Sequence record: PZ386957.1
Source of the DNA: a phage
Direction: 5' to 3' (one strand)
DNA length: 64,000 bases
Shown here: positions 58,854-60,086 of the stretch, one piece after another
How positions within the stretch are numbered: the stretch's first letter is position 1
How the letters are laid out: every line of letters begins with the position of its first letter
Notes under the pieces: generated by a model
The model's input: the letters and a program-made list of their open reading frames with translations, nothing else
Databases searched by the model: none
What the model was told of the DNA's origin: nothing
Position numbers and translations under genes: made by a program

Positions 58854-60086
58854 TTATACTGCCATCGGTGCTGGAATCGCTGGATGGCTTTGATAGTTGA
58901 GTATCTTAAAGTCTTTCGGAGTCTTTGTCAATACCTCATCTAAAGATTTAAATTCCGGTAGTTCAATTGTTGGTTTATCGAACGGAACACGTTTTAATTG
59001 CTCCATTGATTGTTCAAAGTGGTTTTTGTAAATGTGGCAATCGCCTACACTCATAACCAATTCACCAACTTCTAACCCGCAAATCTGGGCGATAATATGC
59101 GTTAACAGTGCATAGCTCGCAATGTTAAAAGACGCGCCTAAAAATAAATCTTGGCTGCGTTGCCACCACATACAAGACAGCTTACCATTATCTACATAGA
59201 ATTGCACCATCGGATGACATACGCCTAATACAGCATTATGTGTTCCTTGTACGTTCCATGAATCCATTACAATGCGACGACTATACGGATCATTCTTGAT
59301 TAAGTCAATCACGTTTTGTAACTGGTCTTCCCAAATCTTCGGGCGATAGACATATTCTTCATCGTCTTTGGTGCTCGATGTGTCTACGTCCATACTAGCA
59401 AAGATCGTGGTATCTGGTGCTAAAATATCCCCACCAAGATAATCACCATCAAGCAGATAACCGAAATAACCATCATCTACCCATTCCTGGAATCCCCACA
59501 AGCAATATGCATCATTAACAAAATTAGATTGAGTCTTCCAGTGGTCTGCTACTAAGAATAGATTATATTCAGAATCAAACTCTTCATAACGCATACCACG
59601 CCAGATAGCACATAAACGGCTTTCTGTTTCATTGGTTGGCGTAAAGTCTTCTACCCACGGGTGCTTAAATGTATGCGTGTATTTGCTTTTAACGCGCTTA
59701 ATTTTGATTTCACCGTATGGGTGAATCGGTTTGCGTCGCCATGCCATACCATACATATTACCAACATTATAACCGTTGAATCGTAGCGGATTCTTTTCTT
59801 TCATATCAAGACAGTTACCGCGCCAAATATCAAAGGCTTCTTCATCGAATTTACCGCGTGTGATTTCCTGCAATCGACGGCGGTCAAGTGATCCTTCCAT
59901 AAACCATAGCAATTCGCCAATTACAGAGGCTGTAGCCATCTTTTTAGTAGTCAGTAATGGGAAACCCTTGCTTAAATCAATTCGCATCTCTGCGCCGAAT
60001 TTAGAGAGCGTACCGACCCCCGTGCGGTCTTCACGAGGCCAGCCATTATCAAGAACATCACGCAACAGTTTCAAATATTCTTTCAT
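58854..60086 (-). CDS. td: Thymidylate synthase with ~120-aa internal insertion
   Basis: 410 aa (E. coli ThyA 264, T4 Td 286); DRTGVGT, ELLWF, DPYSRRIV, VCHPMVQFYV, QRSQDLFLGASFNIASYALL, HPAIPAPMAV conserved; extra segment between GMAWRRK and IWEDQLQNVIDLIKNDP. Confidence 0.85.
   Translation of the reverse strand: MKEYLKLLRDVLDNGWPREDRTGVGTLSKFGAEMRIDLSKGFPLLTTKKMATASVIGELLWFMEGSLDRRRLQEITRGKFDEEAFDIWRGNCLDMKEKNPLRFNGYNVGNMYGMAWRRKPIHPYGEIKIKRVKSKYTHTFKHPWVEDFTPTNETESRLCAIWRGMRYEEFDSEYNLFLVADHWKTQSNFVNDAYCLWGFQEWVDDGYFGYLLDGDYLGGDILAPDTTIFASMDVDTSSTKDDEEYVYRPKIWEDQLQNVIDLIKNDPYSRRIVMDSWNVQGTHNAVLGVCHPMVQFYVDNGKLSCMWWQRSQDLFLGASFNIASYALLTHIIAQICGLEVGELVMSVGDCHIYKNHFEQSMEQLKRVPFDKPTIELPEFKSLDEVLTKTPKDFKILNYQSHPAIPAPMAV

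Follow-up and report, generated by a model that had tools for sequence, protein, structure and literature searches.

Homing endonuclease genes are generally held to be viable within an essential gene only if they are removed as part of an intron or an intein, and are otherwise intergenic. Two arrangements are known in which a gene is disrupted without splicing. In Aeromonas phage Aeh1, nrdA is split by mobE, and fungal mitochondria contain in-frame fusions of rps3 with LAGLIDADG genes; in both, the host gene works despite an unspliced endonuclease-type gene inside it. Here we describe a phage gene that appears to be in the same situation. In a stretch of 64,000 nucleotides of phage DNA (sequence record PZ386957.1), the whole of which we call the window, the td gene lies at 58854..60086 on the minus strand and encodes a thymidylate synthase (ThyA; the window protein is called Td) that carries a 133-residue insert. 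Comparison with other phages indicates that the insert is translated, that it is under purifying selection and that it is homologous to a module associated with phage homing endonucleases. We propose that it is probably a fixed and immobile relic of a homing-type element, still translated, which is carried as a passenger domain by an otherwise normal, dUMP-specific enzyme. In Aeh1 the host protein consists of two polypeptides, whereas the window Td would be one continuous polypeptide in which the foreign module forms an internal domain.

By sequence, the window td gene is an intact thymidylate synthase gene. Its open reading frame (ORF), as given in the ORF list, begins with ATG and encodes 410 amino acids plus a stop codon. 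The product matches Pfam PF00303 (Thymidylat_synt) in two stretches (E 5.7e-83; 278.5 bits against a cut-off of 24.3) as well as PHROG 160, thymidylate synthase (E 9e-98). Alignments with thymidylate synthases of the PDB (E 1e-66) are confined to residues 1-88 and 254-410. BLASTP with E. coli ThyA, whose coordinates are consistent with the PDB alignments, places E. coli residues 1-102 on residues 1-120 and 110-264 on residues 254-410, with 42-47% identity over both halves and 47% over the C-terminal core. The gene consists of an N-terminal catalytic core (residues 1-120; 59727..60086), the insert (residues 121-253; 59328..59726) and a C-terminal catalytic core (residues 254-410; 58854..59327), all on the minus strand, as are the other td features given below; PDB chains and invariant alignment columns support the assignment of the two cores. 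The insert replaces a surface hairpin, E. coli residues 103-109, so that 133 residues stand where E. coli ThyA has 7, a net gain of about 126. A preliminary description of this locus had placed about 120 extra residues between the GMAWRRK and DPYSRR regions, and the alignment with E. coli ThyA that it proposed as a check bears this out and sets the limits at 121-253. The description left the strand unstated and overlooked a second expansion of about 18 residues (residues 89-106; 59769-59822, 'RGNCLDMKEKNPLRFNGY') relative to E. coli ThyA. The signature of this smaller expansion, 'NCLD...RFNG.N.GNMY', is common to a large clade of insert-bearing ThyAs and is missing from the insert-bearers that nest among ordinary ThyAs.

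Td has the same fold as T4 Td and E. coli ThyA (PF00303) and their full set of catalytic residues. The N-terminal core contains R21, E58, W88, Y112 and W116-R117, and the C-terminal core contains R270-R271, C290-H291, R310/S311/D313, N321 and H351/Y353; R21, E58 and the listed C-terminal residues are invariant or nearly so in a 76-sequence alignment. Enzymes of the dCMP hydroxymethylase type (T4 gp42-like) have Asp at the position of ThyA Asn177, and this identity is excluded for Td by Asn321, which is retained in the FNIASY motif as the preliminary description had said. That description had also raised a change of specificity, a suggestion that does not survive the finding that the substrate and cofactor residues are all canonical and that frd, the dihydrofolate reductase (DHFR) gene, adjoins td as in T4, within the td-frd-nrdA-nrdB neighbourhood of T4-like phages. 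More broadly, the insert might have made Td a different member of the thymidylate synthase superfamily that serves DNA modification, such as a dUMP or dCMP hydroxymethylase or an enzyme acting on another substrate. Phage enzymes of this fold have repeatedly switched function, and a relative of Td in Vibrio phage D69, described below, has altered core motifs. We nevertheless judge the chemistry of Td to be unchanged, and consider such a switch very improbable, because every catalytic and dUMP-specificity residue is canonical, N321 included, because the insert sits at a surface hairpin that varies in length among ordinary ThyAs, and because the adjacent DHFR would be required only if dihydrofolate is produced. 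From its residues and the adjacent frd, Td is predicted to be a working dUMP-to-dTMP thymidylate synthase.

The site of insertion, in the small domain of the enzyme, is naturally variable, with 5-33 residues in insert-less phage ThyAs. Other thymidylate synthases are expanded in the same variable surface region: the L. casei enzyme has a 50-residue insert in the small domain and eukaryotic enzymes have one of 12 residues. The L. casei insert precedes the YGxQWR motif, whereas that of Td follows it, and in comparison with both the Td insert is far larger, is predicted to fold autonomously and is of recognisably foreign origin. Its position is the same in all insert-bearing ThyAs, one or two residues past YGxxWR and ahead of DQ(L/I), and the junction '..R(P/R)x(I/V)x(I/V)^DQ' (the caret marks the boundary) is conserved in all of them.

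That the insert is open, in frame and devoid of intein termini had been noted in the preliminary description, and reading the junction residues from the sequence confirms it. A mature enzyme of ordinary size would nonetheless result if the insert were an in-frame group I intron or an atypical intein, and introns and inteins are both represented in this gene neighbourhood: T4 td is interrupted at another, more downstream site by a group I intron that is spliced out, and nrdA of the window has an intein. A group I intron is ruled out by three results. A search of Rfam, group I introns included, gave no match at E<=1 on either strand between 56500 and 61500; the most conserved part of the insert shows no excess of RNA structure (fold z-score -0.67); and selection acts at the level of protein. 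The junctions, ...WRRKP^IHPYG... and ...RPKIWE^DQLQ..., have no Cys, Ser or Thr on either side and no His-Asn before D254, and Pfam gave no match to the insert at E<=10, hence no Hint splicing domain, although the same library does detect Intein_splicing in the neighbouring nrdA halves. An intein is ruled out by these junction residues and the missing Hint domain. Inteins that carry a homing endonuclease domain, of which the split intein of the window nrdA is an example, are likewise in-frame, selfish-element-derived and located at a highly conserved site in an essential gene of nucleotide metabolism. They excise by means of the Hint domain, whereas the insert, lacking this domain, junction nucleophiles and His-Asn, is incapable of self-excision and stays in the mature protein. 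Further against splicing, the 399 nt are fully occupied by a protein domain with protein homologues, and the ends of the insert in the structural model described below form a continuous ribbon out of the native hairpin, so that we attach hardly any probability to a spliced element.

Evidence that the insert is read as protein comes from a comparison of seven Krischvirus td genes, in which it has 17 amino-acid changes in 327 sites and 19 synonymous changes in 78 sites. Amino-acid changes are thus 4-5 times rarer than the neutral expectation (ratio 0.21, P 6.6e-6; 0.07-0.7 in pairwise comparisons). This pattern indicates that the insert is translated and under purifying selection, and it agrees with the suggestion of the preliminary description that the insert could be an added domain, as does the compact fold that is predicted for it.

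The origin of the insert was beyond the reach of the preliminary description. The search with the insert alone that it had recommended was empty when made with a word-indexed protein search, and full-length Td was needed as query. With that query we retrieved many over-long ThyAs, of 400-613 amino acids, whose extra residues all lie at the same place. The long inserts of these proteins (about 245 amino acids) match the N-terminal half of the profile of PHROG 2081, 'HNH endonuclease' (E 1e-24 to 1e-34), and also PHROGs 953, 374, 3377 and 8790 (E 1e-34 to 1e-12 for 2081, 953 and 374). When a profile of the short-insert clade, made up of the window and five relatives, was aligned by hhalign with a profile of 24 free-standing copies, the two matched over 104 columns with a probability of 98.7% (E 3.6e-16). 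The homology of the window insert rests on this profile comparison, since its direct match to PHROG is weak. By these comparisons, the insert is homologous to a phage module associated with homing endonucleases.

This module is widespread. In a tblastn search, the insert of Klebsiella phage phiKp_21 matched 1447 phage records, including Krischvirus td genes (E 2e-12); for the most part the matches were small free-standing genes with the annotation HNH endonuclease, homing endonuclease or DNA-binding protein. When 1.84 billion representatives were searched with a profile of 19 inserts, 4230 clusters (50% identity) matched at E<=1e-3. Among the best 145 new matches, 76 hold both halves of ThyA with the module between them; the rest are stand-alone proteins of 160-300 amino acids or larger proteins with two modules, and one of the 145 combines a GIY-YIG nuclease with four half-modules. 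Foldseek against predicted viral structures returned the same set of proteins, with models annotated as homing endonuclease or DNA-binding. Neither Pfam nor NCBIfam has a family for the insert, the long inserts or the free-standing relatives, and we found no solved structure for the module family. The module therefore occurs in three settings: in free-standing 'HNH endonuclease' genes (PHROG 2081/953/374), in group I introns, and in frame at the ThyA site, where it is found in dozens of divergent clusters of phage ThyAs. Proteins of PHROG 2081 have been described as products of ORFs within group I introns of Bastillevirinae DNA polymerase genes, and InterPro sees only DNA-binding domains in them (PMC11878797).

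The family has the consensus 'Y.lW..M..R...GV.VC.RWh.F.nF..D...GY..W....Y.LDKD..G...YSP.TC.F....N', which includes no histidine, and Pfam HNH models did not match any family member tested. HNH (beta-beta-alpha-metal) nucleases are recognised by a catalytic His on the first strand and a metal-binding Asn or His on the helix; the consensus has no such His, and the window sequence, LLDGDY...APDTTIF at the corresponding place, has neither the helix nor the Asn. The 'HNH' label is therefore nominal for this family, and we infer its homing from genomic behaviour; the nuclease activity of the family is putative and its mobility presumed. The proteins of PHROG 2081/953/374 act as selfish genes, in that they are multi-copy, stand next to conserved genes and lie within group I introns. 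The window insert is homologous to their central module and has the same predicted fold; it differs from these proteins, which have genes of their own, in that it is embedded in an enzyme and is both truncated and acidic.

Structure prediction, also proposed in the preliminary description, gives the insert the form of a compact domain. AlphaFold2 (AF2) modelled the whole Td (76 sequences) with a pLDDT of 95.3 and a pTM of 0.93, and the insert alone (with 19 homologous inserts) with a pLDDT of 90.4 and a pTM of 0.84. In the full-length model, DSSP assigns an outgoing strand to residues 119-130 (KPIHPYGEIKIK; 59697..59732; pLDDT about 95) and a returning strand to residues 245-253 (EYVYRPKIWE; 59328..59354). 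Together these form a long two-stranded ribbon that extends the native hairpin and bears a compact helix-plus-hairpin domain. The globular part of the insert (about residues 143-240; 59367..59660) is strongly acidic, with a computed net charge of -17 and a pI of 4.05. It includes a helical sub-module (residues 153-193; 59508..59630), 'RLCAIW162RGM ... ADHW183KTQSNF189VND', which corresponds to the family motif 'Y.lW..M..R ... VC.RWh.F.nF..D' and in which W162, W183 and F189 are invariant across inserts, and a beta hairpin (residues 210-231; 59394..59459), 'YLLDGDYLGGDILAPDTTIFA', which is a degenerate version of 'LDKD..G...YSP.TC.F'.

The window belongs to an RB49-like Krischvirus, and within this genus the insert is a fixed trait and not peculiar to the window phage. 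The td region is 88-89% identical in DNA to RB49, JSE, Phi1 and 56 other Krischvirus records, and all 59 of the 59 Krischvirus td genes in our phage collection have the same length and the insert; that of RB49 is annotated as td, 1233 nt. The preliminary description had allowed that the insert might be a common feature of a phage group with known function. The first part of this stands, for all 59 Krischvirus records and for many other phages; as to the second, we found in the open-access literature no function for the td insert and no description of it or of in-frame endonuclease-type inserts in ThyA.

Compared with its relatives, the Krischvirus copy is reduced. Full-length inserts (about 245-285 amino acids) and free-standing proteins are tripartite: the central module is preceded by a beta-rich N-terminal part and followed by a NUMOD-like helix-turn-helix at the C-terminus. 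Of these three parts the 133-residue window copy has the central module only. In place of the Lys of the 'LDKD' motif there is Gly in the window and Ser in RB49, and the window copy lacks the helix that bears the conserved Asn. The modules of the family have a median pI of 8.7 and are thus basic, embedded and free-standing ones alike, in contrast to the acidic globular part of the window copy. Other T4-like contigs, in which frd, td, nrdA and nrdB also follow in this order, contain short inserts related to it, indicating that the reduction predates the genus. Having lost these sub-domains and the positive charge, the window copy is most likely unable to bind DNA or to move.

Several of our observations weigh against the view of the insert as an inert relic. 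Its peptide is 88-98% identical across the 59 genomes, and its identity to T4-like relatives beyond Krischvirus is about 50%. Purifying selection on it is evident, where a pure passenger might decay or shrink further, and its strong acidic shift could signal a new function and not decay. Its own match to PHROG is weak (E 0.38), and, with no HNH histidine in the family consensus, homing is deduced from genomic behaviour. Lastly, its synonymous sites are more conserved than those of the core, which the passenger model does not predict.

Some of these observations are what would be expected of a co-opted accessory domain, the main rival of the passenger reading. By this account the insert would have given Td a new role, for example as an acidic docking surface for enzymes of dNTP synthesis or replication, or as a DNA-mimic or regulatory surface. 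The selection on the insert accords with it, and so do its retention in every Krischvirus and in the related T4-like contigs, the large directional change in charge with the fold kept, and the high pTM of the full model, which suggests a fixed position on the enzyme. However, the constraint on the insert is about 20-fold weaker than that on the N-terminal core (0.21 against 0.01) and could be accounted for by selection against misfolding alone; no partner, motif or surface patch has been identified; and insert-less ThyAs function in most phages, T4 included. We therefore regard co-option as a possibility to be taken seriously, if an improbable one, and favour the view that the insert is a passenger.

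The synonymous sites of the insert are predicted by neither the passenger nor the co-option reading. In the seven Krischvirus td genes, synonymous changes number 19 in 78 sites of the insert, 41 in 77 of the N-terminal core and 88 in 95 of the C-terminal core. The conservation includes a 90-nt stretch with frozen synonymous sites (residues 181-210; 59457..59546), which is at least 99% identical in 49 of the 59 Krischvirus records, whereas a control 90-mer of the core, chosen where amino acids do not vary among the seven genomes, reaches this identity in no record. We looked in these 90 nt for an RNA fold, a promoter-like site and an overlapping ORF and found none. Recent spread by gene conversion, or a function at the nucleotide level, could explain this conservation.

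Spread of this kind would be natural if the element were still active, the insert invading insert-less td genes by cleavage and gene conversion, without splicing, either by itself or with a trans-acting endonuclease encoded elsewhere. Recent horizontal spread would be expected to leave such a near-identical stretch, and the insert shows roughly half as much synonymous diversity as the N-terminal core beside it, at equal site numbers. Moreover, the 3' junction of the insert coincides exactly with a recombination boundary: td is a mosaic, 90-100% identical to RB49 over the N-terminal core and insert and 67-85% identical directly past that junction. The histories of insert and core also conflict within the genus, in that the window and relative P0002 are 89% identical in the core and 98% in the insert, and the window and relative P0001 are 98% identical in the core and 81% in the insert. 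Against present activity, the window copy is without two of the three sub-domains and strongly acidic, the family motif no longer has its conserved Lys and Asn, and the phage collection contains no insert-less Krischvirus td to serve as a target. We consider it very unlikely that the window copy is mobile, and return to the view of an immobile relic.

Mobility in the wider family is another matter. In a crude neighbour-joining tree of ThyA cores, the window falls in a large clade in which every member bears an insert, and other insert-bearers nest among insert-less enzymes. The core of P0029, which has a 284-residue insert, is 84% identical to that of the insert-less P0098 and at most 65% identical to that of any other insert-bearer, and the two have syntenic orf98-DHFR-ThyA loci. 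Identities of inserts and cores correlate poorly (r 0.27), with the inserts of some pairs more alike than their cores. This distribution fits, without proving, a mobile element that has entered and left ThyA repeatedly at a single target site.

Individual phages illustrate the range of arrangements. Vibrio phage K470 (OZ196312.1) has an ordinary thyA without the insert (L001:3433-4281), followed by frd, and about 220 nt upstream of this thyA a free-standing module of 273 amino acids (L001:2387-3208). Among the free-standing relatives of the phiKp_21 insert, this copy is one of the closest in the phage collection (36.7% identity, E 2e-17), and a free-standing homing gene with thyA as its target would be expected to show this layout. 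In Vibrio phage D69 (OZ195729.1; L011:2057-3490), a coding sequence annotated 'HNH endonuclease' encodes a 477-amino-acid ThyA-family protein with the module in frame; its core motifs are altered (SRYMIV, FYNIWSY, KDAHTY), and the protein may be an enzyme of thymidylate synthase fold with changed chemistry. Bacillus phage 015DV002 (MW419086.1; L012:1533-3227) has a Bastillevirinae ThyA of 564 amino acids with a full-length module at the same site; the arrangement therefore spans phages of Gram-negative and Gram-positive hosts.

Around td, the cluster is saturated with selfish elements, as judged from three neighbours: a split nrdA intein with an HNH gene, an HNH_3 and AP2 gene, and a zinc-ribbon gene. 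The nrdA gene is split (55141-58788, minus strand, as are the other genes in this paragraph), where RB49 nrdA is a single ORF of 747 amino acids. Its N-terminal part (NrdA-N; 57181-58788) ends in an intein N-fragment (Pfam Intein_splicing positions 10-94) and its C-terminal part (NrdA-C; 55141-56178) starts with an intein C-fragment, '...ILVHN^C' (positions 124-155); between them is a free-standing ORF with a Pfam HNH match (56171-57145), and 1406 nt at 56074-57479 are missing from RB49. The gene appears to contain a naturally split intein whose two halves flank a homing endonuclease gene, and the layout matches the 'fractured gene' arrangement (PMC2677866). Between nrdA and nrdB lies a homing-endonuclease-type gene of 179 amino acids with HNH_3 and AP2 domains (54011-54550), which is missing from RB49, where about 15 nt separate the flanks. 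Beyond frd, a protein of 478 amino acids (61394-62830) has four CapR-homology / treble-clef zinc-ribbon repeats (Pfam) and a C-terminal part that we take to be T5orf172/GIY-YIG-like. The RB49 gene at this position, RB49p240, is annotated 'endonuclease'; in blastn against RB49 the 61394-62830 region is largely unalignable, with nothing aligned from about 61712 to 62784. An ORF of 95 amino acids without a Pfam match (60058-60345) overlaps the td start by 29 nt, as does RB49p236, a hypothetical gene of 270 nt, in RB49.

The mosaic structure of td extends into this neighbourhood. A patch at 58530-59300, covering the 3' half of td, the td-nrdA spacer and the 5' end of nrdA, is 72-87% identical to RB49 and has 90-100% identity on both sides. 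Its upstream edge is the 3' junction of the td insert, and JSE has yet another allele there. We considered whether the divergence of the td 3' part could be a co-conversion tract from the insertion of the nrdA intein, and rejected this because the sequence flanking the intein shows 97-99% identity to RB49 and is distinct from the divergent patch.

Our model is that the surface hairpin of ThyA was replaced by a domain that is translated with the enzyme and retained, and that this domain would have descended from a phage module characteristic of genes of the homing-endonuclease type. Trimming in the Krischvirus lineage would then have left the central part of the element and removed its N-terminal beta sub-domain, the NUMOD-like helix-turn-helix at its C-terminus and the positive charge. 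Such a passenger would persist because only an exact deletion would spare the essential enzyme, and its persistence may have been aided by independent folding and by the tolerant hairpin site. Perhaps the interrupted site is also immune to related endonucleases, which would aid it further. A broader and more speculative proposal is that ThyA inserts represent a third lifestyle of homing-type genes beside introns and inteins, one that does without splicing, with full-length versions (about 245-285 amino acids) still spreading and the Krischvirus copy a fixed, domesticated end-point, possibly with a new role for its acidic surface; we put this forward tentatively and would not expect it to hold in full.

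The sequence of the insert has been public since the RB49 genome, and for the window alone our analysis neatly accounts for a long-standing and unremarked peculiarity of the RB49 group. It also explains a class of over-long ThyAs that are sometimes mis-annotated as HNH endonucleases, as in Vibrio phage D69, and it defines an uncharacterised and very abundant family of phage domains (more than 4000 clusters at 50% identity). A surface site in ThyA that tolerates insertions of 130-280 residues would in addition be useful for enzyme engineering. The novel aspect is an element, probably derived from a homing endonuclease, that is neither free-standing, intronic nor inteinic. An endonuclease-type module that is read through as an internal domain of ThyA suggests that such elements can inhabit an essential gene without splicing, and some insert-bearing ThyA clusters are close kin of insert-less alleles. 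If the full-length versions are indeed mobile, they would represent a splicing-free route of invasion.

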